Source: Anaerolineaceae bacterium
Lineage (GTDB): Bacteria; Chloroflexota; Anaerolineae; Aggregatilineales; Phototrophicaceae
Reading direction: 5' to 3'
DNA: 40,000 bases
Assembly (NCBI GenBank): GCA_020634165.1
Contig: JACKCF010000002.1
Coordinates: forward strand, 17,767-57,766
Positions 17,499 to 36,470 of this stretch are shown one piece after another. How positions within the stretch are numbered: position 1 is the stretch's first letter; every line of letters starts with the position of its first letter. The notes under the pieces are model-generated. The model ran no database searches, was not told the DNA's origin, and was given only the letters and a program-made list of their open reading frames with translations. The position numbers were made by a program, and so were the translations under genes.

Positions 17499-17501
17499 CC
17501 C

Positions 17502-19304
17502 ATGTTGTATTGGCTATTCACTGAAGGACAAATCTGGGCGAAGGTATTAATCGTGCCTGCTGGCGTAGTCACGCTGATTCTGACACTAATCCTTGCAAGC
17601 AAGACAAAGCACTCCCATTCGCGTTTGAAGATCATCAATCACCTTGCACTATCTCTATTCCTGTCCAGCGGATTTGTCCTTCTCCTGAGTACTACGATCA
17701 TTCAACGTGGACGCGCCAGTTTACCGCAGGCTCTTGACTGGCTTGTTGGTGCTCCAGCTTCAATTGATAGCCGTCGTATCCTGAGCTTCAGCACAATATG
17801 GGTGCTGGTTCTTCTGGCTGGCAACCTACTCCTGACACAGCAAATAAAACCAGCTTCCGCACTGCACGAATGGCTCAATCTGCTGAAGCGTCCCTACAAA
17901 AAACGTGGTGAAGTAGGATCATCGCACTTTTGCACGCCATCTGAATTTCGCCGTTTTCGCACACCTCATAGCGAAGGTATCACATTTGATGGGGCTTTCT
18001 GGGGAGAACGCAACCGGCGACTGGATAGTGGCACTGAGCGACTGTGTCTTAGTAGCGAAGATGCTTCGCGTGGCATTCTGGCTTTAGGAAGTCCGGGGTC
18101 AGGCAAAAGTCAGGCTGTGATTCTGCCAATTATCTCTCAGAAAATGCAGGCAGGGCATTCGCTGATCGTCGCCGATCCACAAGGCGAACTGACGCCCTAC
18201 ATTCTTCGGCTTTCCGGGCTGTCTCATCATACAATCGCCATTCATGATCCGACTCAAACGGAGACACCACGCTTCAATCTGGCGGATGATGTGCATACGG
18301 TTTCCGATGCACGAGCAATTGCTGATGTGCTGGTTTCACGCTTGCCCGGCGACAATCAGTTCTGGAGCGATGCGGCTTCTTCGGTACTTGCAGCCTGTTT
18401 GCTTCGGTTCAAAACACTGGGCGAGATTTATAGCGCACTGGCTGACGTCAACAAGCTGGTAGAGCAGTTCAGCAGCCGCGAGGACGATGCGCGCTACCTG
18501 GCAAACAACTTCATGGCAAGTGTGAAAAACGACGGCAAGGTCGCAGCCAATATTGTATCAACACTAGCAACGGCCCTGACTGGTTGGGCATCTGCTGCCG
18601 TGCGTGAAAATACAGCGTCTTCCGATTTTAAAGCAGCCATTCTGATCAAGCGGCCAACTGTCATCATTCTTACTTGTCCGGGACGCATGCGGCAGGTCTA
18701 TGCACCTTATCTTGGAGCAGTGTTGCGGCGTCTCATGCTGGATCTGGATACTTTGGGCGAACACCATGGCGGTGCGCTGCCAAAACCGATCACAATTATC
18801 ATGGATGAATTCCCGACTCTGGGACGGCTGGATGGCTTGGTAGCGGACATCAATCTGGTACGTAAACGGCGCATTACTATTGTGATCGCAGCCCAGACTC
18901 GCGCCCAGTTGCAGCATATCTATGGCACTCAGGGTGCTGATGTGCTACTGAGTGGACTTGCAACACAGATTGTTTTTGGTGGATGTGATACGCATACAGC
19001 CAGCTACTATAGCCAGGCCAGCGGGCAAGCCTCTGCCGGAAATAAAAAAGATGATTTCGTGCGACCACGACCGCTGCTCACGCTTGATGAGGTTCAAAGC
19101 CCCCCACGCGGCAACTGCCTGATCTTCATGCGCTATACAGAGCGCGATTACGCCGCCCAGTTGATTCTGTCGGCGCGGCTCAGGCGATTTTATGAGAGCA
19201 ATTTTGTTCCCGAAACGGGCCAGCAACCATATCTGTTGCCGAGGCGCAACGCAATGAAACTACTGGATCAGGTGCCCCTCACTATCGGGAAACCAACTTC
19301 ATGA
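17502..19304 (+). CDS. type IV secretion coupling protein (TraG/VirD4/TraD family)
   Basis: N-terminal TM helices, Walker A GSPGSGKSQ and Walker B IIMDEFPTLG. 600 aa. Confidence 0.88.
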   Translation: MLYWLFTEGQIWAKVLIVPAGVVTLILTLILASKTKHSHSRLKIINHLALSLFLSSGFVLLLSTTIIQRGRASLPQALDWLVGAPASIDSRRILSFSTIWVLVLLAGNLLLTQQIKPASALHEWLNLLKRPYKKRGEVGSSHFCTPSEFRRFRTPHSEGITFDGAFWGERNRRLDSGTERLCLSSEDASRGILALGSPGSGKSQAVILPIISQKMQAGHSLIVADPQGELTPYILRLSGLSHHTIAIHDPTQTETPRFNLADDVHTVSDARAIADVLVSRLPGDNQFWSDAASSVLAACLLRFKTLGEIYSALADVNKLVEQFSSREDDARYLANNFMASVKNDGKVAANIVSTLATALTGWASAAVRENTASSDFKAAILIKRPTVIILTCPGRMRQVYAPYLGAVLRRLMLDLDTLGEHHGGALPKPITIIMDEFPTLGRLDGLVADINLVRKRRITIVIAAQTRAQLQHIYGTQGADVLLSGLATQIVFGGCDTHTASYYSQASGQASAGNKKDDFVRPRPLLTLDEVQSPPRGNCLIFMRYTERDYAAQLILSARLRRFYESNFVPETGQQPYLLPRRNAMKLLDQVPLTIGKPTS

Positions 19305-19624
19305 ACAAAACTGAGCTCGTCAAACAGATTGCTCGTGAAAGCAAATACACTGACACACCTGTGACGCGTACTCAGGTACGCTGGGTTGTTGATGCACTGT
19401 TCGAGGCAATTCGGATGGAACTGGCCGACGAAGATAGCCGCGTAGAGATTGAACATTTTGGCGTGTGGGAGCGACATACAGTTCATAGGCTCAATACAGG
19501 TACACTGGTTAATAAAGATGGTGCTCGTCGTATACCAGCGAAAAGCCACAGCCGAATTACCTTCAGGACAGCAAAACGCCTCAGGTCAACCTCTGATAAA
19601 AGCTCAAATCTTCATTCACCGTAA
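19301..19624 (+). CDS. HU/IHF-family DNA-binding protein
   Basis: MNKTELVKQIARESKYT...VVDALFEAIRMELA...VEIEHFGVW matches the HU/IHF fold pattern. ATGA overlap with the coupling-protein stop. Confidence 0.8.
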   Translation: MNKTELVKQIARESKYTDTPVTRTQVRWVVDALFEAIRMELADEDSRVEIEHFGVWERHTVHRLNTGTLVNKDGARRIPAKSHSRITFRTAKRLRSTSDKSSNLHSP

Positions 19625-20090
19625 AGCCGCGACTGCGATAGAAATCAGGCAGGTAGGACGTTATAGCAAGATCATCGCTGGTAATCCATCCACGAATGAG
19701 CGATACATCCATGCTCCGTGCTGAGTCAAGGACATAAGCTAACATCGCTGAACCTAGCCCACGCCCTCTGAAGGTGACAGGCCGCCTGTCGAGAAATGGC
19801 AGACGTTGCCACCATTTTTTGAAATACAGGGGAGGATCAAAAATAATCAGATCACCGATGACTATCTCATCGGGTCGTGGCATACGCCAGTTGATTTGCC
19901 CAATGACGTCTTTTTTTGAGCACACATGGCTGATCAGACTAGATGCAGACAGATTCCCTTCAATTGTATAAACCTGACCAGCATCGTCGTAGATGAAGTG
20001 GTTGATCTGAATTCCATCCTCGCGCAAGCTCTTATAATCGTCAATTAGCATCACATACTCACTTGAGATTGGCTTATCAATCCGATACAT
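19581..20090 (-). CDS. GNAT-family N-acetyltransferase
   Basis: Acetyl-CoA-binding motif A RGRGLGSAMLAYVLDSA. 169 aa. Converges on and overlaps the HU gene's 3' end by 44 nt. Confidence 0.75.
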   Translation of the reverse strand: MYRIDKPISSEYVMLIDDYKSLREDGIQINHFIYDDAGQVYTIEGNLSASSLISHVCSKKDVIGQINWRMPRPDEIVIGDLIIFDPPLYFKKWWQRLPFLDRRPVTFRGRGLGSAMLAYVLDSARSMDVSLIRGWITSDDLAITSYLPDFYRSRGFTVNEDLSFYQRLT

Positions 20091-20131
20091 CTTATGGAGT
20101 AAACAGGATTATAACCGAATCCTGACGTGGC

Positions 20132-20194
20132 AGAACATTTCATATCAGAACGTTTGAGCTATACTCCAGTTGTTATAACAAGAACGTTTGATCT
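20132..20194. promoter_or_regulatory. three AGAAC-N4-type half-palindromes (candidate LexA/SOS boxes) upstream of imuA
   Basis: AGAACATTTCATAT (20132-20145), AGAACGTTTGAGCT (20147-20160) and AGAACGTTTGATCT (20181-20194). The last is one mismatch from AGAAC-N4-GTTCT. All lie 5' of the preferred imuA start at 20250. Confidence 0.5.
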
Positions 20195-20249
20195 ATCGGA
20201 AACCGGTTTGCATTGGAACCGGGTCAGTTTTGTTTTGCCGGAAGCCACC

Positions 20250-20927
20250 ATGAGCACTGTCACCGCCCGATCCGAGGCACTCGAAAAGACCATTCAGCAG
20301 CTGCAGCGCCAGTTCGGCCAGCAGGTGATTGCTGCTGCAAGCCGCTTGTCGCAGGCTGAGGTGTTGCACACAGGCGTCACTGCCCTGGATACGGCGCTGG
20401 GTGGCGGATTGGCAGTCGGCCAAATCAGCGAGCTGCGTGCGCTACCCGGTCATGGGGCAACCTCACTGGCGATGCGCCTCATTGCTTCGGCACAGGCAGC
20501 AGGCCGAATCGGTATTTTCATGGATCTGGCAGATGCCTTCGATGCCAGCGCTGCCCACCATGCTCATGTCGATTTTATGCGTTCGCACTTCCTGCTGGTA
20601 CAGCCGCCTTCGCCAACAGATGCCTTCATTTTTGTGCAGGCCGTGCTCCATGCCCGCATTCCCGGTATCGTCATCGTGCGACCGCATCCGCAGCAGCCCT
20701 TGCCCCAGCTGCCCTGGTCGCGGCTGAAAGGAGCGCTCGCCAGTTTGCCGCTGGTCGTCGTCGTGATTCAGCCGCCTGCATCAACCGAAATCGAGGCCGC
20801 AGGCACGCGCCTGCTTTTGAAGCGCGTATCCGGTGACAATACGGTGCAGATTCGCATTCTGCGCCATCCATTGGGCAAAGCCGGGCAGGTAGTAAGAGTT
20901 CCCCTGTTGCCGGAAGGGTCGCGCTGA
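20250..20927 (+). CDS. imuA: ImuA-like RecA-fold protein of the imuA-imuB-dnaE2 mutagenesis cassette
   Basis: LDTALGGGLAVGQISELRALPGHGATSLAMRLIA is a RecA/ImuA-type P-loop region. Its stop overlaps the imuB start (TGATG). I prefer the ATG at 20250 (MSTVTAR...) because the candidate SOS boxes lie within the longer track ORF. Confidence 0.75.
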   Translation: MSTVTARSEALEKTIQQLQRQFGQQVIAAASRLSQAEVLHTGVTALDTALGGGLAVGQISELRALPGHGATSLAMRLIASAQAAGRIGIFMDLADAFDASAAHHAHVDFMRSHFLLVQPPSPTDAFIFVQAVLHARIPGIVIVRPHPQQPLPQLPWSRLKGALASLPLVVVVIQPPASTEIEAAGTRLLLKRVSGDNTVQIRILRHPLGKAGQVVRVPLLPEGSR

Positions 20928-22108
20928 TGTTATGTATCACTCTGACCCACTTCGCGGCGGCAGTCGAGAGCTTTCAGCATCCCGAACTGGCCGACAAGCC
21001 GCTCATCCTGACGCAGAAGCGCAAGCGTGGGCATGTCGTCGCGGCAGTCAATCAGTTGGCATGGGAGGCCGGTGTGCGACCCTTCCAACCACTGCATCAG
21101 GCCAAAACGCGCTGCACCAATGCCGAAATTCGCTCGGCCAATCATCTGGCGTATGAGCGGCTTCTGCTGGAAATCGCCGCAGGGATTCATCCGCTGGTCA
21201 ACAAGCTGGAACCGGAATATCAGCCGACGGTCGCCAGCATCTACCTGGATATGCCCTACGACCGCGTGCTGCTGGCCGCTATCGGACGCATCATTCAGGA
21301 GAAGGTCGGCCTGCGAGTGAAGTTCGGACGCAGCGAGAAAAAATTCCCGGCGCGGGTGGCTTCGGCGGTGAGCGGAGCCGGGCAGTGTGCGACGGTCACA
21401 CCGGGTGATGAAGGGCGTTTTCTGTCGCCCTATCGGGTGGCACTGCTGCCGCTACCGATCAGCATGGCACGGAAATTGCAACTGGTGGGCGTAACAACAT
21501 TGGGTGAACTGGCGAAGCTGCCGCGCACGGAAGTGTGGCAGCAGTTCGGGCGCGAGGGACGACGTATGCACGAGATGGCCTGCGGCGAGGATGTGCGTCC
21601 GATTGTGGCCTGGACGCCGGAAAAAGTGCTGTCCATCAGTGAAGAATTCGAGGATGGCATCGCGGATCGGCAGATGCTGAACCGTCATTTGCAGCGTTTG
21701 GCGCAGCCGCTACTGGATCAACTGGCGGGCAAGGAAGCGCATCGCCTGACGATCACCGTGGAAACAGCCGACGGTCAACGATGGGATGAGGAGCGGCAGC
21801 CGGAAGATGGCATCAAGGCCAACAATCCCTTCTTTCTGCTGCGGCAGATACAGTATGCCCTCGACAGCCATCCGGTGGAAACACCCGTCACCCGCGTGAC
21901 GTTGCGCCTGTCACGCCTGAAAGATCCGCTGCCAGTGCAGCTATCGCTGTTTGATGAACCCTCGGACAAGGTCAAACTGCCGAACCTGATTCCACTGTGG
22001 CTGGAGCGTCAGCCGACGCTGACCGTGTGCGGTGTGGATCTCAAACAGCCCGATCACATCGTCGCTGAAGAGCGCTTCAAGATTGAGCAGATCAGCGGGG
22101 CATCATGA
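20927..22108 (+). CDS. imuB: ImuB, Y-family DNA polymerase-like protein (catalytically degenerate)
   Basis: Y-family fold with an N-terminus MLCITLTHFAAAVE, where DinB-type enzymes have DxDxF(F/Y). Position between imuA and dnaE2. Confidence 0.85.
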   Translation: MLCITLTHFAAAVESFQHPELADKPLILTQKRKRGHVVAAVNQLAWEAGVRPFQPLHQAKTRCTNAEIRSANHLAYERLLLEIAAGIHPLVNKLEPEYQPTVASIYLDMPYDRVLLAAIGRIIQEKVGLRVKFGRSEKKFPARVASAVSGAGQCATVTPGDEGRFLSPYRVALLPLPISMARKLQLVGVTTLGELAKLPRTEVWQQFGREGRRMHEMACGEDVRPIVAWTPEKVLSISEEFEDGIADRQMLNRHLQRLAQPLLDQLAGKEAHRLTITVETADGQRWDEERQPEDGIKANNPFFLLRQIQYALDSHPVETPVTRVTLRLSRLKDPLPVQLSLFDEPSDKVKLPNLIPLWLERQPTLTVCGVDLKQPDHIVAEERFKIEQISGAS

Positions 22109-22365
22109 GTTACCTGTGGCTTCCGGGCATTCCGATCCGGGTGTGGCTCAGATATGGTGTGCCCAATCGTTTTCAGTGGGAACGGCAGTCCTTTTTTGTG
22201 GCGCACATCGTCGATAGCTGGCGCGTTGATACCGGCTGGTGGCGGCTGGAACGGCGTGCCTGTCAGTACTGGCAGATCACGACCACGACCCGGGTGCTGA
22301 TGGTCATCTACCGCGATGAACTGTCGCTCGAACCCGCATGGTTTCTGGAACAACTGGTAGATTAG
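22105..22365 (+). CDS. small conserved-looking protein between imuB and dnaE2 (Trp-rich; possibly a DUF6504-type imuB-associated protein)
   Basis: 86 aa with an ATGA overlap with the imuB stop; ends 3 nt before the GTG start of dnaE2. WRVDTGWWRLERRACQYWQI motif. The family name is from memory only. Confidence 0.5.
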   Translation: MSYLWLPGIPIRVWLRYGVPNRFQWERQSFFVAHIVDSWRVDTGWWRLERRACQYWQITTTTRVLMVIYRDELSLEPAWFLEQLVD

Positions 22366-22367
22366 TT

Positions 22368-25300
22368 GTGGGTTACGTCGAACTGCACTGCCATTCGTGC
22401 TACAGCCTGAAGGATGGCGCATCCACCCCAGTGGAACTGGTTCAGCAAGCCAAAGCGCTGGGCATGAGCGCCCTCGCCCTGACTGATCACAATGCGGTTT
22501 ATGGCGCGGTCGAATTCTGCAAAGCGGCGACCGAGGTCGGCATCAAACCGATCTTTGGTGCGGAAATGACGCTTGATTCCGGGCATCACCTGACGCTACT
22601 GGTGAAAAATCTGCGCGGCTGGTCGAACCTCGGACACCTGATTACACTGGCACAATTCAATGCGCCCAAGGGCGAAGCACTCATTGCGCTGGATACCTTT
22701 TTCGGACATACCGATGGCCTGATTGCCCTCACTGGCTGTCGAAATGGATTATTGGCAGAACATCTTATAAGGAAAGATCGAGCAGCAACAAAGTCGGCGC
22801 TGAAAGACCTGATTGCCCTGTTTGGCAAGGATAATCTATGGGTGGAATTGCAGAGGCATCATCTGCCGGGGGAGAAGGCACTCATTCAGCAGCTTGTGGC
22901 GCTGGCGAAGTCGGAGCAGGTTGGTATCGTGGCGACCAACAACGTGCATTACGCCACCCCGGAGCGCAAACCGCTGCAGGATGTGCTGGTGTGCGTCGAG
23001 CACCTGACCAACCTTGATGATGCTCAGGCACGCGGCCTGCTGCGCATCAACCACGAATACCACCTCAAATCAGTCCGGCAGATGAGTGACCTGTTCGCCG
23101 ACTATCCCGAAGCGATCACCAACACACAGCTCATCGCCGATCAGTGCAACTTTATTCCTGAATATGGTTATCAGGACTTGCCGGAATTCCCCACGCCGAA
23201 CTATCTGCCAGCAGAAGTATATCTGCGCCAGTTATGCGAAGCAGCGTTGGCAAAGCGCTTTTCAGGCGAGACCAGCAAGGTTCGGGCACAGTTGGAACAT
23301 GAACTGGACGTCATCCGCGAATCGAGGCTGTCGAATTATTTTCTCATTGTGTGGGACATCGTGAATTATGCCGGCAGCCAGAACATCCTGTGTCAGGGAC
23401 GCGGCTCGGCGGCGAATTCGCTGGTGGCCTATTTGCTGCACATCACACCGATTGACCCTATTGAGCATGGCCTGGTCTTCGAGCGTTTTCTGTCGAAGGA
23501 ACGGCAGGTCACACCTGATATCGACATCGACTTTGACAGTGCGAGGCGCGAGGAAGTCATCCAGTATGTGATGCAGCGCTATGGCACCGATCATGCCGCC
23601 ATGACCTGCACCTTTATCACCTACCGCACCAAGAGTGCCCTGCGTGATGTGGGACGGGCGCTGGGTGTGCCGCCGGAATGGATCGAACGCGCTTCGAAGG
23701 CCGTGCGCGGCTACCGGGGCGCCAATCGCAAGCCTCTGAGCTTCATCGACGAGACGGTCGAGGAACCGCTGGATGATTCGGTTGTGGAACAAATTTACGC
23801 GCTGGTCGAACAGCTTCAGGGACTGCCACGCCACATTGGGCAGCACAACGGCGGCATGGTCATCATGCGCGACATCCTCAGCCAGCGCGTGCCGATTGAA
23901 CCGGCCACCATGCAGGATCGTGTCGTCATTCAGTGGGACAAGGAAGCCCTGGAAACGGTCAATCTGGTCAAGTTTGACATTCTGGGGCTGGGCATGCTGG
24001 CGGCCATTCAGGAAGCATCGGACACAGTGCTGCGGCTGACGGGCAAACCGTTCCGCATTGAAGACCTGACCTTCGACGATCCAGCGATTTTCAGAATGAT
24101 CGCCGAAGCCGACACTATCGGCCTGTTTCAGGTGGAGAGCCGCGCACAGGCCCAACTTTTGCCGCGCTTCCAGCCAAAAAACTTTAGCGACATTATTATC
24201 GCCATCTCGCTGATTCGACCGGGGCCGATTCAGGGTGGTATGGTGCATCCCCTGCTTCGGCGACGTACCGGACGTGAGGAGGTAACGTATCTGTATGATG
24301 CCCTGCGCCCTTCGCTGGAAGAGACCTATGGCGTCATTGTGTGGCAGGAACAGGTGCTGCTTGTTGCACGCGACATCGCTGGATTCACAGCAGGCGAAGG
24401 TGAGCAGCTTCGACGGGCGCTGGGCGCGAAAAACGGTTATGAGCGCGTCGAATCGTTCCATGACCGCTTCATCATGGGCGCAGCCAGCAAGGGCATTTCT
24501 GCCGAAATTGCTGAAGCCATCTTTGACCAGCTTCGTGGCTTCGGGGGCTATTCCTTCGCCAAATCGCACGCCGCCAGCTTCGCCGTGCTGGTGTACGCCT
24601 CGGCGTACTTGCGGAAGTATCACCCGGCGGCTTTTTACTGCGCCCTGATCAACGCCCAGCCGATGGGCTTCTGGTCGGTCGATGTGCTGACCAACGATGC
24701 GGCTCGGCTTGGTGTGAAAACGCTCAAGGTAGACATCAACCGCAGCGTAGCCAGAACCGAGGTGCTGGATGCGAAAAATATCCGGCTGGGCCTGACGCAG
24801 GTGAAAAGCATCGGCGAATCGAGTGCAGATCGCATCCTTGCGGCACGCGAGAAAGGCAGCTTCAACAGCCTCGAGGATCTATGCCGACGCACACAGCTCC
24901 CTGAACGCAAGATCGAGAATCTGATTCAGGCCGGTGCGGTCGATGCGTGGGGCATTCCGAGGCGCAAGTTGATCTGGCAGGCGGGACTCTACAAGGCCGA
25001 TGAGGATGAACTCGATCTGGCGTATCTGGCGGAGGAACTGGCACTGCCCTTGCAGCATGGGGTGCAGGAGCAGGCGATGGAGTACAGTGTGACCGGCATC
25101 AACACGGGCGACCACCTGATGAGTTATGCCCGCGACTGGCTGAGGCAGCGCGACACCCTCGCCAGTTATGAACTGGCGGACTGCTCCCATAATTCGATTG
25201 TGCGGGTGGCGGGGCAGAACCGTGTGGCGCAGTCGCCGCAGACCGCGAAGGGCATGACCTTCCTGACGCTGGAGGATGAATGGGGCATGATGAACATTGT

Positions 25301-25466
25301 CGTGCGTCCCGACATCTTCGGACGCTATGCCCGCATCATTCTGGATAGTCCGCTGCTGCTGGTGAAAGGCCTGCTGGAGCGTGGCGATGGTGGCACGATC
25401 AATGTGCTCGCGCATCAGTTTGCTGCGCTGCCGATGCAGACCTTACTGTATTTATGTCCGCGTTGA
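22368..25466 (+). CDS. dnaE2: error-prone DNA polymerase III alpha subunit DnaE2
   Basis: PHP domain start (V/M)GYVELHCHSCYSLKDGAS and polymerase core motifs (FDILGLGML, GLFQVES, RPGP). ~1030 aa. Alternative ATG at 22338 overlaps the preceding small ORF. Confidence 0.92.
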   Translation: MGYVELHCHSCYSLKDGASTPVELVQQAKALGMSALALTDHNAVYGAVEFCKAATEVGIKPIFGAEMTLDSGHHLTLLVKNLRGWSNLGHLITLAQFNAPKGEALIALDTFFGHTDGLIALTGCRNGLLAEHLIRKDRAATKSALKDLIALFGKDNLWVELQRHHLPGEKALIQQLVALAKSEQVGIVATNNVHYATPERKPLQDVLVCVEHLTNLDDAQARGLLRINHEYHLKSVRQMSDLFADYPEAITNTQLIADQCNFIPEYGYQDLPEFPTPNYLPAEVYLRQLCEAALAKRFSGETSKVRAQLEHELDVIRESRLSNYFLIVWDIVNYAGSQNILCQGRGSAANSLVAYLLHITPIDPIEHGLVFERFLSKERQVTPDIDIDFDSARREEVIQYVMQRYGTDHAAMTCTFITYRTKSALRDVGRALGVPPEWIERASKAVRGYRGANRKPLSFIDETVEEPLDDSVVEQIYALVEQLQGLPRHIGQHNGGMVIMRDILSQRVPIEPATMQDRVVIQWDKEALETVNLVKFDILGLGMLAAIQEASDTVLRLTGKPFRIEDLTFDDPAIFRMIAEADTIGLFQVESRAQAQLLPRFQPKNFSDIIIAISLIRPGPIQGGMVHPLLRRRTGREEVTYLYDALRPSLEETYGVIVWQEQVLLVARDIAGFTAGEGEQLRRALGAKNGYERVESFHDRFIMGAASKGISAEIAEAIFDQLRGFGGYSFAKSHAASFAVLVYASAYLRKYHPAAFYCALINAQPMGFWSVDVLTNDAARLGVKTLKVDINRSVARTEVLDAKNIRLGLTQVKSIGESSADRILAAREKGSFNSLEDLCRRTQLPERKIENLIQAGAVDAWGIPRRKLIWQAGLYKADEDELDLAYLAEELALPLQHGVQEQAMEYSVTGINTGDHLMSYARDWLRQRDTLASYELADCSHNSIVRVAGQNRVAQSPQTAKGMTFLTLEDEWGMMNIVVRPDIFGRYARIILDSPLLLVKGLLERGDGGTINVLAHQFAALPMQTLLYLCPR

Positions 25467-25525
25467 AAAGATGGTACATGATGTAAAATAAGTTGAATTG
25501 ATTAAATGTTTGAAAGAAAAAATTC

Positions 25526-27286
25526 ATGAATGTCATCCGACTATTCATGTGGGGTTATCAAGACTCATTCTGGATAGAAGCGAAACTTGCCGCAGAAAAG
25601 GTCTTCAATCAACTTGACTCTGACTTCAAACCGCAGGTTTTTCTCCTAGGTATACTTTCGGAAGATTTGGAGGAGCGATATCCTGTCTGTTTTGAGCCAG
25701 AAGAGTGTGGATTGCAGGAAGAGTGGTTTACTGAAATACAAGAGCAAGCCAAACATTATGAGGCAATCGACGAAGAAAGACACTATTTTCACTCCCATCC
25801 ATTGTCGCAAGAAAAACACGAGCAACACCTCAAGCTCAAGGCTTTGCGCAAAGCCTTACTGGAAATATTGAATTCACACAATAGCGTTAGTACAAATTAT
25901 GAGGTTTTTTGCTCTTATCCAATTTTGGTAAGCGGATATCGTGTTTTTGTTGTACTGAAGCTCAATGAAGCTTGCTATCAAAAATATTATGCACTAAATA
26001 CTACCCATTTGAGACGAGATAAAATACCTACTTCCTTGATTGACGCAGTGATTTTAGAGTATTTTGCTGCTTGTCAGAGAGCTCTAATGCTACCTAATCC
26101 GGGAGCAGGACTTAAAACCTTAGAACGAGAACCGACGGAGATTATCAACTTGGCTGGTCGATTCTTAATGTATACGCCAGCGCTAAAGAGTGAAGCTGGC
26201 AACAATATTGCTTCATATACGTTATTTGAAGACTGCAACACCATTTCATCTCTGACTTACGAAGGGGCAGAAGGTCGTGGAAAGATAATTCTCGCTCCAC
26301 CCAATCATCCTAATGTTTCGATTGATATTTTATTTGCCAAACCTGTTGCTTTCAAGAATTTTGGTGCAGTACGAAAACTACTAGAACTTTGCGGTCATCG
26401 TGAAAGCCTCATTGCTGATTCAACCTCAATTTATGGATTAGGTTACGTATCAGGCACTTACGATGTGAGGTATGAAAACTTGTTTCAAATCAACTTCACT
26501 CGGCAGCATTCATGGGAACTGGTTCATGCTCAACATACTATGATGCGCGTAAAATATCGCCAAGCAAATATCCCAAGTTCGGTAATTAATGAAACCAAAT
26601 TCAGAACAGACGCTGGACGTATTTTCCCAAACATTGAACCCAAACAAATTGAAGCGCTGCTTGAACTAATTGTCGCCGCGACTAAACAAAAACACGGGGC
26701 TCTGGTCATAATTGCTGAAGACGCAGAACAAGAAGCAACCAGACTTGCAAATGAATCAACTGTCATACAACCTATCCCATTAACTCCTGAACTGATGAGT
26801 TTGGTTACGGCTATTGATGGAGCTGTTCTTGTTTCACCTGATGCAACCTGTTTTGCAATAGGAGTTATATTAGATGGCCGAGCTACGCCAAAGGGTAACC
26901 CCGCAAGAGGTGCTCGCTATAATTCAGCGATTCGTTACGTTGAAAGTCAAAATCAAAGCCTTGCAATTGTAGTTTCCGAGGATGGCGGAGTCAATTTAAT
27001 TCCTAATCTAATGCCACAAATACGCAAGTCTGAACTTATACGACACATCGAAATTATAGGGGAAGTACACACTTCTGAGAAGCGTGATCGCATAGCTTAT
27101 TATGCATCTGAAGAATGGCTAAGATCACATCAATTTTATCTCTCGAAAGAACAATGCGACAAATTAAATATGATGATGAGAGAGATAACACGGGGTTTCC
27201 TACGTGAAAGTGGATGGGGTATTGAACACAATGATCTTCAACCTCATGAAGATATGAATGAATCATATTTCATGATCGAAGATTGA
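25526..27286 (+). CDS. 586-aa protein with unassigned N-terminal ~370 aa and a C-terminal diadenylate-cyclase-like (DisA_N/DAC) domain with altered catalytic motif
   Basis: HGALVIIAEDAE (from aa 390), IDGAVLV (D431-G432-A433), GARYNSAIRY (R464-Y465-N466 where DACs have RHR) and AIVVSEDGGVNLI align to the DAC pattern GALIVI / HDGA / GTRHRAA / VSEETG. Confidence 0.6.
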   Translation: MNVIRLFMWGYQDSFWIEAKLAAEKVFNQLDSDFKPQVFLLGILSEDLEERYPVCFEPEECGLQEEWFTEIQEQAKHYEAIDEERHYFHSHPLSQEKHEQHLKLKALRKALLEILNSHNSVSTNYEVFCSYPILVSGYRVFVVLKLNEACYQKYYALNTTHLRRDKIPTSLIDAVILEYFAACQRALMLPNPGAGLKTLEREPTEIINLAGRFLMYTPALKSEAGNNIASYTLFEDCNTISSLTYEGAEGRGKIILAPPNHPNVSIDILFAKPVAFKNFGAVRKLLELCGHRESLIADSTSIYGLGYVSGTYDVRYENLFQINFTRQHSWELVHAQHTMMRVKYRQANIPSSVINETKFRTDAGRIFPNIEPKQIEALLELIVAATKQKHGALVIIAEDAEQEATRLANESTVIQPIPLTPELMSLVTAIDGAVLVSPDATCFAIGVILDGRATPKGNPARGARYNSAIRYVESQNQSLAIVVSEDGGVNLIPNLMPQIRKSELIRHIEIIGEVHTSEKRDRIAYYASEEWLRSHQFYLSKEQCDKLNMMMREITRGFLRESGWGIEHNDLQPHEDMNESYFMIED

Positions 27287-27615
27287 AGCATAATAATGAT
27301 GAGGTCGCATAACGAATAATGTTCTTGTGCTAACTTGAGTTAAGCACCTCACATATCTATTTCTCCAGTGACCTCGCCGATGAATTTCGCGCCGTTTGAG
27401 TTATGGCAGTAGCCTGGCGTGTGCCCATCCACATGCTGCTTCGGATTGTGTGAATATATTATATTGGGTAAACCAACCATATGATTTGCTAAGTCTAATG
27501 GGATCTTTTTCGAGTTCACCCGGAATAAGGTCCAACATATGCTATAGGTTACGTTATAGGGTAATATTGATGAATTACATGCCATTTACTGTGTTAAGAA
27601 CGGTCATATTGTAAA

Positions 27616-29499
27616 ATGCCGAGTTTCACGGTTGAGTACAATTCAAAGGGACGCTTGGGACAATTCAGCTTTGAGAATGGGATAACTAATATCTCAACAC
27701 CTTTTATGTTCCCAGTGGCTTCAACAGTGACTGGCACAACAGCAAATGGGGGCGGAATATGGAAGTATATTCTTCAGGCATATCCAGATACTGATACGGA
27801 TGTTAATCAGGCCCTCATGCGTCGAGGGATGCCCATTCTTTCACAAGCACTTCAGTTCCTGGATTATGGTGTTAGCAAAAACAAAGTTAATCTTTGGCGG
27901 CAACAGTCGATCCGGAAGATGTATAATGAAGCACATAGAATGGACTATAAGGCACCTATTTTTCTTGATTCTGGTGGATTCAAGTTAATGTGGCGTGAAG
28001 GTCTCAATCTTGATGAATATGGGATCAACCTAAGTCCATCAAAAGAAGCACATAGCATCTTATGTCTGCAGCATGACTTGGGTGCGAACATTATTGCCAG
28101 CCTAGATTATCCAATACCCCCCAATCTTGCTCCGTCTGAAGCTAAGCAAAGAATGAAAAGAAGTCGTAGAAATGCTATCACTGTTGCTCGCTATCTGCGG
28201 GATGGAGAATTTTCAAGCTGGAGACCTTTTCTTTACATGCCAGTTCATGGGTTGTCACCGGAAGCAATCTCAGCATATGTAAAAAACCTATTCAATAGCG
28301 TATATACCTATGGGCTTGGTAATGATCCCATCGGAATTGCGGTAGGCTCTCTTGTCCCCCTGCGATTCTCTCGCACAAACCTATATCGGATCATCACAAT
28401 TGTCGATGCCGCAGTAAAAGCAATACCTGCCAAATACCGAGATCGAATCCCTGTACACGTTTTTGGTGTCACAGGAATCTTAATTCCGTTTTTAGCATAC
28501 TGCGGTGTTGATACCTATGATTCAAGTACTTATGTTAAGGAGGCCATTAATCTTAGATACATGCATCCCGATACAAGAGTTGGTCATGCTGTATTGGAAA
28601 TGACAGAAGATGATTTCATTTGCGATTGTGATGTTTGTCGGAATATTAAATTACTGGAATTACAAGAAGCTCTTGCGGCTGAGGGAACGGGCAAACCTTT
28701 AGTCCAATCTGGTCACTACAAAAGTAAATATTATGCTGATATTGCCTTACATAACTTGGAACAAGACTTCAAAATATTACGAGAAACGAGACATGCCATA
28801 AAACAAAATTATATGGCTGAGTTTATCTTGCAAGTGGCTGAGCGATTCCCACGAATGCGATATGCACTTGATGGTCTCTGTGACACTAATAAGGATTTGA
28901 GACTCAAAGCATCCAAACGCATACAACCTGTTATAAAAACAAAAAAAATAACCAAATCGATTGTTTTTCAGACACTTTCTCATACCCCGGATGATTTTAA
29001 TATTGCACATATGAATGGACATATTAACAGATCATATCCTCGTATTCTGTTATTGCTTCCATGCTCGTCAGACAAACCTTATTCTGATTCAAGAACACAT
29101 AAGTACGTTGAAAAGCATATACATGACTATATTCCTGGAATGAGAGATAAAATTCATAAGGTTTCATTGTCAGGGCTCTATGGGCCCGTTCCCGAAGAAT
29201 ATGAAACATGCAAACCTGTACTTGACTATAACTATCGTCTAATTCCGAAAAACGAAGCGCAGATAGAACTAGTCACTACACGGCTTGTTGAATATCTTGA
29301 AATTCACGGTGCAAAATATCTACATTGCGTAGCGTATGCAACGAGTAAGGCTTATCGTTTGGTATTTGAAAAAACAGCAGAACAATACCCATCCCTGACA
29401 CTTTTACCCACTGCTCCCAAGTCTAAACGACTTACAGAGTTTTTCAGAACAAAAAACATCCAAGAATTAGTTAACATGATAAGTGATATGCTTGATTAA
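27616..29499 (+). CDS. TGT/DpdA-like (tRNA- or DNA-guanine transglycosylase family) protein fused to an ArcS-type (DUF5591-like) C-terminal domain
   Basis: TGT motifs FLDSGGF (D118), CGVDTYD (D299, D302) and the Zn site CDCDVC (C336, C338, C341) with a later H in IALHNL. The C-terminal PCSSDKPYSDSRTH (aa 482-495) fits the ArcS motif PC-X3-KPY-X2-S-X2-H. Confidence 0.75.
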   Translation: MPSFTVEYNSKGRLGQFSFENGITNISTPFMFPVASTVTGTTANGGGIWKYILQAYPDTDTDVNQALMRRGMPILSQALQFLDYGVSKNKVNLWRQQSIRKMYNEAHRMDYKAPIFLDSGGFKLMWREGLNLDEYGINLSPSKEAHSILCLQHDLGANIIASLDYPIPPNLAPSEAKQRMKRSRRNAITVARYLRDGEFSSWRPFLYMPVHGLSPEAISAYVKNLFNSVYTYGLGNDPIGIAVGSLVPLRFSRTNLYRIITIVDAAVKAIPAKYRDRIPVHVFGVTGILIPFLAYCGVDTYDSSTYVKEAINLRYMHPDTRVGHAVLEMTEDDFICDCDVCRNIKLLELQEALAAEGTGKPLVQSGHYKSKYYADIALHNLEQDFKILRETRHAIKQNYMAEFILQVAERFPRMRYALDGLCDTNKDLRLKASKRIQPVIKTKKITKSIVFQTLSHTPDDFNIAHMNGHINRSYPRILLLLPCSSDKPYSDSRTHKYVEKHIHDYIPGMRDKIHKVSLSGLYGPVPEEYETCKPVLDYNYRLIPKNEAQIELVTTRLVEYLEIHGAKYLHCVAYATSKAYRLVFEKTAEQYPSLTLLPTAPKSKRLTEFFRTKNIQELVNMISDMLD

Positions 29500-29615
29500 T
29501 ATCTCTATAACTAACCAAAAATCGCATATGAATATATAATAGTAATCCTTACCTAAATTACATAACTTAAATCGAACTGTTTGTGGGCGTGCCAAGTAAT
29601 GTATGAGGAAATACT

Positions 29616-32600
29616 ATGGTTAGTAATCAGATTCTTCAAGAAGATTTCGATGCTCTAAAATCATCTTTTTTGCTAATTAATCAGGATAACAATGTTCCCA
29701 CAACAATGTTTGTTGAATCTTATAGTCAAATAGTCCCCTCAAAGACCCGTGTCGAAATTCGTGAAGGTTTGTACATCCCTCGACCATTGGAAGTCGCTCG
29801 AATCCTCCGACATTTGAAACAAAGATTTACCCCAAATGGTAACTATGCTTCCTTGGTAAGTCGAATTCGTGCAGAGATCATACTTCGTGAGCGACCTTAT
29901 CGAAATACAAAACCAGAAGATGTACCACAATCGCTGCGAAATATTGCTGAAATCGGTCGTCTCAATAACATAATTGAGTTTCGTTATTCTGAATTCCAGT
30001 GGCGTGGGTGGCAAATTGTGCTAGAGGCATTAGCAAAATCCCAACTGGGCCAACCCGCAGGAGTAGTGGCGACAGCACCAACAGGTTCTGGTAAAACAGA
30101 AACATTCATGTTGCCCATCATCACTGACACTGTAGAAGCGGCAGCGCGAGGTGCAGAAAGACATTTTGTTTTTATTTATCCGAGGCGTGCGCTAGCCCAA
30201 GACCAATTATCTAGGGTTCTACGTTACGTAAAAAATGCGTGTAATCACTTTAAAATGCCCGATCATCGCATAATTGTTGGCATTCAATTCACAGGCATTG
30301 CTTCAAGTAGAGAATCCACGTTACGAAACCGCAATATATTTCACAACAGGCGCAGTTTTAAGTTGTTAGATAGATGTCCGTGGTGTGGCAAACGTAAACA
30401 ATTGATTTTTCAAACACAGGGAGAATATTCATACCTACAGTGTTCTGAGTGTGAGAATCGAGTCGCTGTTTCACTCTCTAAAAACGATCACAGCTCATTA
30501 AATCCTAATTTGATGATTACAACTGCTGAGTCCTTAGACAATATGTATATGGATTGGGATTTTCGTGATTATATACCGAAGATCGACGGTATTATTTTTG
30601 ACGAGGCACATTTATTCAACCAAGTATATGGAGCTCATATCCATCACCTGATTCAGCGCGTTAGAAATATTGTCCGCGAAATCTCTCGAAAGGAACTGCT
30701 ACTAATTGCTTCTAGTGCTACCATTTCTGAGCCTGCTGATTTTGCTAATCGCTTATTTTATGGTAATGAGAATCCTCCTAGTAATATTTATTCCATTGAC
30801 GCCAATCAATATGAAATGAACCCAAGTGGTATCGAAACATTTTTCTTTTTGCAGACTGATAATGCGCGACAAACGATGTCGACAATGATTCAAACGGTGA
30901 TGGCAACAATGCATGGAGCAATTAATGATGATCGACGGGCTATCATATTCGCAAGCTCATTGGACACTGTGGGACGCTTAAAAGTACAGTTTGACGATGC
31001 CGAGATAAACCAACAACTTTGGAGGATGAGGATCAACAACCAAGATATTAATGTTTTTCAATTTGAGAATGTATCTTGTCCGCGCACAACACCGTATATT
31101 TGCTCACTATATGATATGGGAGAATGCTGGCGTGGCATCTTAGGCGGAATACAATGCCATGAGAATCCAATATTGGGGATGCGTTCCAGTAGTTTGGAGA
31201 CACAAACAATTACAGGAAATACACAAGGCAGCCGATCACTTGATAAGCCAGTTATCATCGGAACATCTGCCTTAGAAGTAGGCATTGATGATCCTACAGT
31301 ACAGACAACTTTTCATTATCGACCTCCTCGGACAGTCTTTGATTTTATCCAAAGAAGAGGCCGGGCAGGACGGAAAGAAAATGATACTGCTTATACAGTG
31401 ATGGTCTTGGGACAAGATTCAACAGATCATTTCTATCTGGTGCGTCGTCATCGCCTAATTGCTGGTCAATACTCTCTCCCACTCAACCCTAACAATCCAG
31501 TAGTTACTCGAATTCATGAATTACTTAGTCAAAGTCGGGCTGAAGGTTTTCGACTCGTCAGTAGCAACGGAAGTGAATTGAATGGTACATGGCTTTGGCT
31601 TGTTCATACACTCCAAAATTCGTCAATAGTTTCTTCGGCGCATGAAGCGCTACTGAACGAAGTGTTACGGGCGCGCAGCTTCGATGTAAAGAAAGCAAAA
31701 TTACTGAAATGGATTAACGAAAATATTGAAGCTCTTGAAAATCAACTGGCTGATCGTGGTATGTTCAGGACAAATAGATATCCTACACTTCCTATGCTTG
31801 TGGCTGTGTTTGACGATATTGTAGCGGCGTATGATTCTTGGGTTGAAGAAGAAGATGTAACAACACAAGATACAGCAAAAAAGTTAATAAGTTATCAGCA
31901 TAGACTAGGGGATATGTATTCGGCTTTTGATGGTAGAGCATACGATCGCAGGCGGTTTACAGAGGAGTTTGATGTTGTCAGTCAAACATTACAACGGATG
32001 ATCGCTAACATACAGGAAGAACAGCGGGAAGTTCGAGACAGATTTCGTGAGACAAGGGCATGGTATGATTTCTTTTTTCATCTACGTAAATTATATGATC
32101 AGGATTGGATTTTTTACACTTTTTCATATGTAGTGAAGTATATTTATCAAGCACTATTCTTCTTAAATCGCGGATTTGATAACCAAACGCAAAATGAGAT
32201 TGATGTATATGTTCCCGATAATTATTTCGGCAACATAACTCCAATGCGTGTTCATATTGGTGATCAGAATAAGCGAACAACAGAGCCGATAACTTATTTG
32301 GAATCGTTATTTTATCCCTATCGTATTAGCTACCGTTATGCAAGTGATGCCGCCCACACCCAGCTTGCTCCAATGTATATGCTAGATAGCCGCAGCAGAG
32401 AAATAATTGGACCTAACCAAGTAAGAATAAAGCCGGCGGCCTATGGTTTGTCGATTGCAGATCCAGAAAACCCTGACTATTCAGTTCGCAAAGTTCGTGA
32501 AATCCGTGTTATGGAGCTTCAGGCTGATGCCCGTCAAAACATTAGCATGTGTCAAACTTGTTTCCGCACTTACGATATAGATTTTGACCAAATGAATTGT

Positions 32601-33473
32601 GAATGTGGCGGCGATATTGCTCAGGGTTCAATATTTGTGGAAAAAACATATACAAGACAAGGGATACACGAGCAACAACGGCGAATAAATATAGGTAATA
32701 GTTTTAGCATAGTACCTGCTCTGGATACGTGGACAAAAGTTAACGGTTCCCAAGTTACGTTTACACCTTTGAATGGCGGACGAAGAATTCGGTTCAATGC
32801 TTGGTTGAGCCCTAGCTTATATTTTTCTATCCCAACTAAGGGTATTTCTTGGAGGGTGCGTGCCATTGCTAATCATGTTGAGGAAAGCCTTCATGCTGCC
32901 GCCCATGTCTTGGTTAAGGCAATGGCATCAGTTGTAGGCGTGCGTGAAGATCAATTAGCATATAGTTGGCAGTCTGAGAGTCAGGAAGTAGTAGTTTGGG
33001 AAAAATATGAGGGTGGTGCAGGGCTATGTGAGATATTTGCAGATCGTTTGCAACGTAATCCTTTAGAAGTCTATCAGGAAATGGTCTCTGTTGTAGCATG
33101 TCCCATATATTTATCAGAACAAAAAGGGCATTTGTGGGAGACAGATGATGAACTGCGAAATTACTTATCTCATGAATTTGGACTTGCCCCTGAAACAGCA
33201 TTACTTAAAGAAATTATCGATAACACCATATCGGAATCGAGATCGAATACTTCCGAGTTGGTCTGCACAGATAATGATGGTTGTCCAGTATGTATTACAT
33301 CCATCACGAATGCTCAGGATGATCAACCGAGTCGTTTGATCGCTTGGAGGTTAATCGGTGATTTAATAAAGGTATTTGAAGAGAGCGAATGGAAAGAAAT
33401 TACCCCAGAACAATTCGCCCCTGTAGTGTGGGTAGATAACAATGCGGAACTAATATATGTCTTGGTCTTCTAA
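29616..33473 (+). CDS. large DEAD/DEAH-box (YprA/MrfA-like) helicase with inserted zinc ribbon and C-terminal DUF1998-like 4-Cys domain
   Basis: Walker A APTGSGKT (K160), motif Ia YPRRALAQDQ, FDEAH (D329-H332), SSAT and QRRGRAGR. Zn ribbon CPWC...CSEC (aa 254-279) lies between motifs I and II. C-terminal CQTC (979-982), NCECGG, WEKYEGGAGL (1128-1137) and CPVC (1223-1226). Confidence 0.8.
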   Translation: MVSNQILQEDFDALKSSFLLINQDNNVPTTMFVESYSQIVPSKTRVEIREGLYIPRPLEVARILRHLKQRFTPNGNYASLVSRIRAEIILRERPYRNTKPEDVPQSLRNIAEIGRLNNIIEFRYSEFQWRGWQIVLEALAKSQLGQPAGVVATAPTGSGKTETFMLPIITDTVEAAARGAERHFVFIYPRRALAQDQLSRVLRYVKNACNHFKMPDHRIIVGIQFTGIASSRESTLRNRNIFHNRRSFKLLDRCPWCGKRKQLIFQTQGEYSYLQCSECENRVAVSLSKNDHSSLNPNLMITTAESLDNMYMDWDFRDYIPKIDGIIFDEAHLFNQVYGAHIHHLIQRVRNIVREISRKELLLIASSATISEPADFANRLFYGNENPPSNIYSIDANQYEMNPSGIETFFFLQTDNARQTMSTMIQTVMATMHGAINDDRRAIIFASSLDTVGRLKVQFDDAEINQQLWRMRINNQDINVFQFENVSCPRTTPYICSLYDMGECWRGILGGIQCHENPILGMRSSSLETQTITGNTQGSRSLDKPVIIGTSALEVGIDDPTVQTTFHYRPPRTVFDFIQRRGRAGRKENDTAYTVMVLGQDSTDHFYLVRRHRLIAGQYSLPLNPNNPVVTRIHELLSQSRAEGFRLVSSNGSELNGTWLWLVHTLQNSSIVSSAHEALLNEVLRARSFDVKKAKLLKWINENIEALENQLADRGMFRTNRYPTLPMLVAVFDDIVAAYDSWVEEEDVTTQDTAKKLISYQHRLGDMYSAFDGRAYDRRRFTEEFDVVSQTLQRMIANIQEEQREVRDRFRETRAWYDFFFHLRKLYDQDWIFYTFSYVVKYIYQALFFLNRGFDNQTQNEIDVYVPDNYFGNITPMRVHIGDQNKRTTEPITYLESLFYPYRISYRYASDAAHTQLAPMYMLDSRSREIIGPNQVRIKPAAYGLSIADPENPDYSVRKVREIRVMELQADARQNISMCQTCFRTYDIDFDQMNCECGGDIAQGSIFVEKTYTRQGIHEQQRRINIGNSFSIVPALDTWTKVNGSQVTFTPLNGGRRIRFNAWLSPSLYFSIPTKGISWRVRAIANHVEESLHAAAHVLVKAMASVVGVREDQLAYSWQSESQEVVVWEKYEGGAGLCEIFADRLQRNPLEVYQEMVSVVACPIYLSEQKGHLWETDDELRNYLSHEFGLAPETALLKEIIDNTISESRSNTSELVCTDNDGCPVCITSITNAQDDQPSRLIAWRLIGDLIKVFEESEWKEITPEQFAPVVWVDNNAELIYVLVF

Positions 33474-33942
33474 GTCGTTACAATGGATGATTCCTGGTAT
33501 CTTTTTAACTGCAAAGAAGTCAAGCAAAATAGTTATAATGAGTCCTTGGATTGATGATGTGGAATTACTTATATATTCTTGGAATGGGCGAGAACAATTA
33601 GCTGGCAATGTTTTACTTTCAAATGTAATGAAATGGCTGCATAGGAATCGCAATAATCATTTTCTAGCTTACGTACGGACAGATCAACTGTATCCTAGGA
33701 TTAATCCTCGGTTAAATCGTGTACAAAGTCGAGCCTCTTCAGCTTTGGAAGTTCGAGATATTCAATATTTGCACGCGAAATTACTAATCACAGATGCAAT
33801 GGTTTTAGAAACTTCTGCGAATTTTCTGACTTATAGCATTCACAGAAATGTCGAAAGTCTCTATATTAGAAAAAATCCGTTACAAAATGCATCAGCTTTT
33901 GCTCAGGACTTCATTACTAGACACGGCCACAGTCAACTATGA
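33457..33942 (+). CDS. phospholipase D-family (single HKD) nuclease-like protein
   Basis: HKD motif LHAKLLITDAMVLETSANF (H106, K108) and an N-terminal IVIMSPWI strand typical of PLD/Nuc. Overlaps the helicase 3' end; an alternative start is at 33487. Confidence 0.75.
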   Translation: MSWSSKSLQWMIPGIFLTAKKSSKIVIMSPWIDDVELLIYSWNGREQLAGNVLLSNVMKWLHRNRNNHFLAYVRTDQLYPRINPRLNRVQSRASSALEVRDIQYLHAKLLITDAMVLETSANFLTYSIHRNVESLYIRKNPLQNASAFAQDFITRHGHSQL

Positions 33943-34346
33943 AGATTTATGTTGCAGGACCACTGTTCAATACTATGGAGCGCAGCTACTTAGAGGAAAT
34001 CGCAACTGCACTTGAGAATGCAGGTTACAATACATTTCTTCCGCACAGAGATGTTGGGTTATTAGATAGTATTGATGATGTTAATCGAGAGCATATATTC
34101 CGCGCAGATATGACTGCGTTGGATGACTGCGATATTTGTGTTGCATTACTAACTGGACCTGATCATGATTCAGGTACCAGTGCAGAAATTGGCTATATGT
34201 ATGCCAAAGGAAAACCATGTTTTGGTATCACTGATGATATGCGATGGATGAATAATCTCATTTGGGGGCTTTGTAACTCAGGCAACAATATCTGTACATC
34301 AATCGAGACATGCATTCAACTGCTAAAAACGCAAATTAGTCAGTAG
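33939..34346 (+). CDS. nucleoside 2-deoxyribosyltransferase-family protein
   Basis: MKIYVAGPLFN N-terminus and DSGTSAEIGYMYAKGKP (catalytic-Glu context) match the NDT/Rcl family pattern. ATGA overlap with the PLD gene. Confidence 0.75.
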   Translation: MKIYVAGPLFNTMERSYLEEIATALENAGYNTFLPHRDVGLLDSIDDVNREHIFRADMTALDDCDICVALLTGPDHDSGTSAEIGYMYAKGKPCFGITDDMRWMNNLIWGLCNSGNNICTSIETCIQLLKTQISQ

Positions 34347-35013
34347 TAATTAAAGGATTAAGCTGCGTATTAGCGTTGATAGCATCGATACCCTCCTGCC
34401 TTTTTATAAAGTTTACTGTCAGATAAGTTAGGGGAGTTGCCAGAGACTCATACAATGTTTTGAACAACCATTGTGTAATGACAGCCAATACCAAATCATT
34501 GGTTGCCATGGTTCCAGCGAAAGCAATCACAATAAATATTAGAGAATCAAAGCCCTGACCAACAACAGTAGAAGTTATAGTCCTAGACCATAGCCAGCGT
34601 CCTTTTGTTAGTTTTTTCATTCTATCGAGGATATACGCATTCAAGAATTCGCCAATTAGATATGCGATAAATGAAGCAAAAAGTAGGCGAGGAGTGTAAC
34701 CAAGGATTCGTTCATATGCTGCTTGTCCGTCCCAGAAATTGGCAGATGGAAGAAGTTGTCCTGCGACAATGCCTGCCACAGCAACAAGATTGCAGAAAAA
34801 ACCAAGCCATATTACTCGACGTGCATTTCGAAATCCATAGACCTCGGTAAGAATATCACCTACGATGTAGCTGATTGGAAAAATGACTATGCCCGCGGGC
34901 ATGATAAAGCCCCAGATATCCACCAGCTTTACTGCCGCAATATTGGCAGTGATTAGAGATGTAATAAATAGACCTGCAATTGATACAAACCAAATTGAAT
35001 ATTTGTTTGACAT
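34336..35013 (-). CDS. yhhQ: queuosine-precursor (preQ0/preQ1) transporter, YhhQ/VUT family
   Basis: Six-TM protein with ITANIAAVKLV...PAGIVIFPISYIVGDILTEVYG, characteristic of YhhQ (DUF165). Confidence 0.8.
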   Translation of the reverse strand: MSNKYSIWFVSIAGLFITSLITANIAAVKLVDIWGFIMPAGIVIFPISYIVGDILTEVYGFRNARRVIWLGFFCNLVAVAGIVAGQLLPSANFWDGQAAYERILGYTPRLLFASFIAYLIGEFLNAYILDRMKKLTKGRWLWSRTITSTVVGQGFDSLIFIVIAFAGTMATNDLVLAVITQWLFKTLYESLATPLTYLTVNFIKRQEGIDAINANTQLNPLITTD

Positions 35014-35025
35014 GTAGTCTCCGGT

Positions 35026-36420: not shown

Positions 36421-36470
36421 TGGGCGTTTTTGCTTACCCACACACCATTTCACCTTTCAGGAGGTGCGAT

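Follow-up and report, generated by a model that had tools for sequence, protein, structure and literature searches.

Gene and domain architecture

The window analysed here is a 40,000-nucleotide stretch of contig JACKCF010000002.1 (assembly GCA_020634165.1) from an Anaerolineaceae bacterium of the phylum Chloroflexota. At positions 25526-27286 of its forward strand, the list of open reading frames (ORFs) contains an intact gene for a protein of 586 amino acids, which is full length against the profile of its family. This protein is a stand-alone (solo) member of the described CdaG (= DS-2C) family of diadenylate cyclases (DACs), and its gene adjoins a block of deazaguanine-related genes. The original prediction, made from the letters alone, had seen a DAC-like C-terminal third with an altered catalytic motif, fused to a large N-terminal part that it could not assign.

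Three Pfam domains account for most of the protein. DACNG (PF21752, E 4.3e-60) covers residues 8-215 (25547-26170) and DACNH (PF21750, E 9.5e-31) residues 231-335 (26216-26530); both are described as a "probable sensor domain" and are functionally uncharacterised, and the N-terminal ~370 residues are therefore not unassignable. The catalytic DAC (DisA_N) domain (PF02457, E 4.9e-12) follows at residues 386-489 (26681-26992), where it scores 45.9 bits, the gathering threshold being 27 bits. The arrangement DACNG-DACNH-DAC within one protein of ~580 residues is that of the CdaG family in the DAC census of Galperin 2023 (J Bacteriol 205:e0002323), as that census is quoted in two August 2026 preprints. 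All three domains lie on the plus strand in this order.

Structure prediction bears out the assignment of the C-terminal third. An AlphaFold2 model of the whole protein, built on 61 homologues, reached a mean predicted local distance difference test (pLDDT) of 88.9 and a predicted template-modelling score (pTM) of 0.80, and its C-terminal third has the DAC fold: Foldseek retrieved DisA, CdaA and CdaM structures at probability 1.00, with target-normalised template-modelling (TM) scores of 0.6-0.66 and sequence identities of at most 26% (DisA 9y4s and 7y0d and CdaA 6huw among the matches). Together with the Pfam score, these matches establish that the resemblance to DACs is not due to chance. 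At the level of sequence the relationship is more distant, as neither full-length phmmer nor hmmsearch with the 61-sequence family profile recovered a DAC among the PDB sequences; the isolated DAC segment alone gave matches there, weak and correctly aligned.

The N-terminal half yielded no comparable answer. A separate model of residues 1-352 (pLDDT 91.8) found no significant fold neighbour in the PDB by Foldseek, the best match being the DAC CdaM (8ofj_B, E 0.068, TM 0.39), and hhalign placed DACNH on DAC in register at an insignificant E of 0.23. A 2026 preprint has remarked that DACNH is possibly a very distant, catalytically dead DAC. These data are no more than suggestive of DACNH being a degenerate DAC-like fold.

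The C-terminal 90 residues form a helical bundle in the AlphaFold2 model, of which DSSP delimits three helices at residues 501-562 (27026-27211, plus strand); this part belongs to no Pfam family. The bundle is absent from a shorter CdaG subgroup, in which matches end near residue 492 (loci L046, L056, L061 and L068 of those assembled for comparison). This subgroup, which also includes L068-L073, L078, L083-L085 and others, shows conserved synteny with an upstream gene of ~280 residues, a setting that resembles housekeeping more than an island context.

Active-site motifs and their conservation

Direct translation of the ORF confirms the blocks on which the first reading of the sequence relied, with HGALVII at 26693-26713, IDGA at 26813-26824 (residues 430-433), RGARYNSAIR at 26906-26935 and VVSEDGG at 26969-26989. 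When residues 370-500 were compared with PDB sequences by phmmer, "taIDGAvlv" paired with "plHDGAvim" of CdaA, "GARYNsA" with "GTRHRaA" and "vvSEDgg" with "vSEEtGG", and these blocks were free of gaps. Accordingly, I430-D431-G432-A433 (26813-26824) is the counterpart of H-D-G-A, with the catalytic Asp retained in a D-G-A that aligns with that of CdaA; R461-G-A-R464-Y465-N466-S467 (26906-26926) is the counterpart of G-T-R-H-R-A; and S484-E485-D486-G487 (26975-26986) is the counterpart of S-E-E-x-G, all on the plus strand. The replacement of R-H-R by R464-Y465-N466 (nucleotides 26915-26923), which keeps the first Arg alone, and that of the His before D-G-A by Ile are thus real and had been placed correctly.

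The substitution is neither a lesion nor a local oddity, as the original prediction had left open, since it is an invariant signature of the whole CdaG/DS-2C family. In an alignment of close homologues, D431-G432, R464, Tyr or Phe at 465, and N466 are present in all 121 sequences, as is S467. The same positions are kept in 149 of 149 alignable representatives at 50% identity, which are 28-46% identical to the cyclase and were gathered without any word index, and S467 is kept in 146 of them. The Ile before D-G is nearly invariant, and the Ser and Asp of the S-E-D-G block are invariant. The motif also occurs in all five gamma-proteobacterial DS-2C loci, which were found via unrelated peptide patterns, and the Escherichia coli protein EcDS-2C (WP_001593457.1) reads IDGT and SRGSRYNS. 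A further 80 metagenomic loci (L016-L095) were retrieved by a pattern containing R[YF]NS and were used for neighbourhood analysis, not for motif conservation. Overall, the 586-residue cyclase carries every family-invariant position, namely W9, Q12, E246, G252, R283-K284, D431-G432, R461-G462, R464, N466-S467, S484 and D486.

Such strict invariance of D431-G432, R464, Tyr/Phe465 and N466 implies purifying selection on a working site and not decay. Because of this conservation and the published activity of relatives described below, R-[Y/F]-N-S together with I-D-G-A is, as judged from the alignments, to be regarded as the form that the DAC active site, including its phosphate-binding motif, takes in the CdaG family. 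The invariant R461 is a candidate residue that may supply the lost positive charge.

Two distant relatives on IMG/VR contigs (L104, 8255-9301; L105, 1642-2427) match DACNH and DAC only, from residue ~220-240 onwards, and keep IDGA and RG[AS]RYNS without DACNG; the motif therefore seems to go with the DACNH-DAC pair and not with DACNG. Viral contigs very rarely carry CdaG-like genes, with four loci found.

The CdaG/DS-2C family and its published function

The cyclase belongs to a large family. Searches gave 1729 matches in 90% clusters, the best of them 56% identical, and at E<=1e-30 the family comprises 1465 clusters at 50% identity. The nearest named relatives are from Nostocales and Roseiflexaceae, and the closest relatives, at 40-56% identity, come from cyanobacteria and Chloroflexota, share this architecture and lack fixed neighbours; an all-against-all clustering of the ORFs flanking closer relatives (35-56% identity) likewise revealed no recurrent neighbour for the solo clade. 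A single-protein search of genome contigs returned six loci, each of them either of DS-2 type or distant. Descriptions of the family, of its domains by name, of its role in defence and of the product of the enzyme had already appeared between 2023 and 2026, and what is new here is a divergent solo CdaG member in Chloroflexota-like DNA.

The functional work concerns DS-2. The DefensePredictor report (PMC13092281) describes it as a system that protects E. coli and consists of a patatin phospholipase, a cGAS-like nucleotidyltransferase and, as the third gene, the DAC protein DS-2C; defence is abolished by mutation of the DAC, either by D433A, which removes the Asp of IDG, or by a change at another residue predicted to be catalytic. 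DS-2C proteins purified from Hymenobacter and from Flagellimonas show activity in vitro, and the Hymenobacter products were identified as c-di-AMP by LC-MS (liquid chromatography coupled to mass spectrometry) in a preprint from the Kranzusch laboratory (bioRxiv 10.64898/2026.08.10.743927). Antiphage neighbours are reported to be enriched around CdaG branches (10.64898/2026.08.10.743972).

One detail of the mutant data deserves mention. The mutation listed as R468A in Table S11 of PMC13092281 has no arginine to act on in a near-identical EcDS-2C (L101, 5001-6746, E. coli AR_0128), which reads R466-Y467-N468 and has its next Arg at 472. Residue 433, changed in D433A, is indeed the Asp of IDG; the source may have misnumbered the other mutant.

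DS-2C of E. coli (WP_001593457.1 and WP_016240614.1) resembles the cyclase in its architecture of DACNG, DACNH, DAC and helical bundle, in its length (581 versus 586 residues), in the motifs I-D-G-x and R-Y-N-S, and in its location in defence-rich mobile regions. The two proteins differ in that they are only ~31% identical, and the cyclase, which matches NCBIfam NF053872 (DS2_3_antiphage) over its full length, scores 604.5 bits with that model, compared with 806-819 bits for bona fide DS-2C and an equivalog cutoff of 630. Furthermore, in true DS-2 loci the cyclase gene directly follows the patatin and CD-NTase genes (L001-L005, L067, L076, L079 and L081). No match to the patatin (DS2_1) or the CD-NTase (DS2_2) was obtained by tblastn against the whole window at E<=1e-3, and no Patatin or SMODS Pfam domain was detected on its ORFs. 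At L101 in E. coli (3069-11746), the DS-2 operon is found immediately upstream of an entire type II cyclic oligonucleotide-based antiphage signalling system (CBASS) composed of a CapV-like phospholipase, DncV, an E2/UBC-ThiF Cap2 and Cap3, so that two CBASS-like systems stand side by side there.

Compared with other DACs, the cyclase has the same catalytic fold as CdaA/DacA, CdaM and DisA and shares GAL(V/I), DGA and S-E-x-G with them, whereas canonical DACs read R-H-R and H-DGA in place of R-Y-N and I-DGA. It has neither the transmembrane anchor of CdaA nor the HhH domain of DisA, and carries the 370-residue N-terminal module instead. The minimal PanS DACs (Panoptoo and PanDA, 2026 preprints) provide a further parallel in that DAC domains have been recruited into anti-phage islands; PanS proteins, however, have ~150 residues, are constitutively active and are paired with a 2TM-beta effector, whereas the cyclase has 586 residues and large regulatory domains, and no such effector lies nearby. 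From the CdaG family itself it shows no structural difference, although it alone among the sampled members has a deazaguanine block next to it in a low-GC island.

These comparisons bear on the chemistry of the protein, for which the original prediction had offered an inactive nucleotide-binding sensor, a cyclase with altered chemistry or substrate, and a DNA-scanning module. A cyclase comes closest, and it is the alteration that lacks support, since relatives are reported to make ordinary c-di-AMP. Still, an active cyclase with another product or substrate has to be weighed: R-[Y/F]-N and I-D-G-A could remodel the phosphate and metal pocket, such that this clade would make something other than 3'3'-c-di-AMP. 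Two of the three R-H-R residues and the His before D-G-A are replaced family-wide, the cyclase shares only ~31% identity with the assayed clade, and the PanS enzymes are reported to make 3'3'-cUA, which indicates a wider product range of DACs than was thought. On the other hand, the product reported for DS-2C proteins by LC-MS is c-di-AMP (10.64898/2026.08.10.743927), and the assayed proteins are expected to carry R-[Y/F]-N, because this motif is invariant in every family sample. A product other than 3'3'-c-di-AMP is therefore unlikely. In canonical DACs, the substituted positions contact the phosphates and the metal and not the base, which also counts against a changed product.

That the protein is a catalytically dead pseudo-cyclase, acting only as a nucleotide-binding receptor or sensor, is less probable still. 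The absence of the canonical R-H-R and of the His of H-D-G-A would favour it, as would the fact that EcDS-2C is not among the five of eight purified proteins with robust in vitro activity (10.64898/2026.08.10.743927). However, Asp-Gly, the first Arg and S-x-D are invariant over >270 diverse sequences, related DS-2C proteins are active in vitro, and D433A kills DS-2 defence. An invariant site, c-di-AMP synthesis by relatives and the need for the DAC in E. coli defence (PMC13092281) all argue against the inactive sensor that had been considered.

The deazaguanine block and the island

The cyclase gene is separated by a 329-bp spacer (27287-27615) from a gene on the same strand, starting at 27616, that encodes a TGT-DUF5591 protein (ArcS-like, without PUA, by domain searches) and heads the deazaguanine block. 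This gene is followed by genes for a DpdJ-like DEAD helicase with an MrfA Zn-binding domain, a DpdK-like PLD nuclease and a nucleoside 2-deoxyribosyltransferase, and, on the opposite strand, for a YhhQ-type preQ0 transporter and QueC. No riboswitch or other RNA element was found by an Rfam scan of 25000-36500, which includes the spacer, and a scan for promoter and terminator consensus sequences in 25300-27800 gave matches at chance level only.

Cyclase and block share one acquired island. This low-GC segment (25467-35935) lies between dnaE2 and an RNase H gene, begins directly after the stop codon of dnaE2 and comprises the cyclase, TGT-DUF5591, DpdJ-like, DpdK-like, deoxyribosyltransferase, YhhQ and QueC genes. 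All seven have a GC content of 0.36-0.41 (0.41 for the cyclase gene) and a GC content at third codon positions (GC3) of 0.28-0.35, compared with 0.56-0.60 and 0.61-0.70, respectively, in the flanking imuA-like/imuB-like/dnaE2 cassette and RNase H gene; it is this common low GC and GC3 that indicates a joint island. Over the right flank (35936-36666), the DNA shares 72% identity with 19708-20451 of an Aggregatilineales metagenome-assembled genome (L012), which carries a tyrosine integrase between its QueC gene and this flank. No integrase was found by tblastn in the copy of the window, suggesting that an element at the same site of insertion has decayed or lost its mobility.

A shared island does not amount to a conserved linkage. 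To call the cyclase the first gene of this block describes its position only, and comparative genomics lends no support to operon membership. None of the 80 metagenomic CdaG loci, in which at least 2 kb was available downstream in 44 and upstream in 43, contains a homologue of the TGT, helicase, PLD, deoxyribosyltransferase, YhhQ or QueC genes, and the CdaG loci L008 and L011 contain no block gene either. Conversely, a DAC gene is present in none of seven distinct TGT-DUF5591 loci. In L012, the same block, with a TGT protein 67% identical, is inserted at the same right-hand junction, and LexA-like and primase-like genes occupy the position of the cyclase, with the integrase at the other end; the block is complete without the cyclase in L012/L013 and L106. 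Adjacency of cyclase and block has been seen in this strain only, L007 and L108 being the same strain in two samples. PADLOC matches the cyclase to none of its families and its neighbours to DpdJ, DpdK and QueC; the cyclase thus shows neither a match to a Dpd component model nor a conserved co-occurrence with TGT-type or 7-deazaguanine genes. It adjoins the block, and the best description of it is variable cargo on the island edge and not a conserved component.

For these reasons we consider it improbable that the cyclase is a working part of the deazaguanine system, one that would sense infection or unmodified DNA and whose product would switch on the DpdJ-like and DpdK-like proteins or TGT-DUF5591. 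Its immediate upstream position on the same strand, GC and GC3 values identical to those of the six block genes, the recurrence of the arrangement in both samples of the strain, and the precedent of DS-2, which shows that CdaG proteins can be added to a different defence system and work within it, speak for such a role. Besides the distributions just described, the length of the spacer and the absence of any detected SAVED, CARF or STING-like nucleotide-sensor domain in the block proteins speak against it.

The block merits attention of its own. QueC, YhhQ and the nucleoside 2-deoxyribosyltransferase are frequent extras of TGT-DUF5591 blocks (27616-35694 in the window), and the partner module varies: it consists of a DpdJ-like helicase and a DpdK-like PLD protein in the window and in L012, L015, L099 and L106, of NurA and HerA in L014 and L098, and of GmrSD_N and HEPN in L096. 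The TGT protein is matched by no PADLOC model. The TGT-DUF5591 block appears to represent a Dpd-like family of Chloroflexota and cyanobacteria that has not been described, and its novelty may exceed that of the cyclase.

The island lies within a larger mobile element that carries several defence cargos. The backbone of this element (10533-25466) encodes a helix-turn-helix regulator, a single-stranded DNA-binding protein, a type IV secretion system coupling protein (17502-19304) and an HU-like protein, and then a RecA-fold ImuA-like protein, a Y-family ImuB-like polymerase and the error-prone DnaE2 (NF004225, 1113 bits). A second defence cargo at 12126-15736 on the minus strand, with a GC content of 0.42, is an ABC-3C system made up of a DUF3732/AAA_23 ATPase and a Cap4-nuclease/CTD7/MC3 protein. 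A tRNA-His (anticodon ATG) called by ARAGORN at 25130-25213 lies inside the dnaE2 coding sequence and is almost certainly a false positive.

Proposed function

Taken together, the cyclase is probably a solo CdaG-type c-di-AMP synthase, regulated by its sensor domains and carried as cargo of a defence island, and not a conserved part of the deazaguanine block. This proposal builds on the family membership, fold, motif conservation, unlinked block and island composition observed here, and on the c-di-AMP synthesis and defence role reported for relatives, from which the activity, trigger and target of the 586-residue protein would follow by extension. In the mechanism that we envisage, the N-terminal DACNG/DACNH module would restrain the cyclase by gating the pairing of DAC domains. 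A signal, probably linked to infection, would release the pairing of two such domains, which would then condense two ATP molecules to 3'3'-c-di-AMP. Because the window yielded no candidate receptor, the receiver may be encoded elsewhere or may be the host's own c-di-AMP network.

Several observations weigh against this proposal. The NF053872 score falls just under the equivalog cutoff, and at ~31% identity to the validated and assayed DS-2C clade both activity and a role in defence are extrapolations. The 40-kb window yielded neither a receptor nor an effector for c-di-AMP, so that the output of a cyclase acting alone is not accounted for, and close relatives are also met outside defence settings (L008). 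In addition, the same strand, contiguity and identical GC and GC3 shared with the deazaguanine genes fit a local functional link in this one island.

A bolder scenario, which we regard as more doubtful than a plain working role in the block, is that this solo CdaG protein was recruited as the infection sensor of the deazaguanine block, its dinucleotide licensing the DpdJ-like and DpdK-like proteins, or that it arrests the cell by flooding the host's c-di-AMP network. If true, either route would be a new coupling of second-messenger signalling to DNA-modification-based defence.

Finally, a DisA-like scanner of DNA integrity that couples DNA binding to c-di-AMP synthesis is very improbable: the top Foldseek matches are DisA chains and the supplement of PMC13092281, in the part concerned with EcDS-2C, lists a weak HHpred match (81.7%) of the same C-terminal helices to the DisA linker, but Pfam at E<=1 finds neither HhH, DisA-linker nor any other DNA-binding domain in the cyclase, its DAC domain is C-terminal, whereas DisA has an N-terminal DAC followed by a linker and a C-terminal HhH, and the DisA alignments diverge to a root-mean-square deviation of 11-12 A outside the DAC core.

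Implications for annotation

For the solo c-di-AMP synthase proposed here and for its relatives, some consequences for annotation follow. Loss of R-H-R in a DAC domain that is accompanied by DACNG and DACNH should not be read as inactivation, because R-[Y/F]-N-S is a conserved variant of the active site in a family that comprises ~1,500 clusters at 50% identity. The adjacency to deazaguanine genes seen in this strain should likewise not spread as an operon annotation. Furthermore, solo CdaG genes without CBASS partners occur in Chloroflexota and cyanobacteria, and their existence raises the question of what reads the signal in these bacteria and which ligand the DACNG and DACNH domains recognise.

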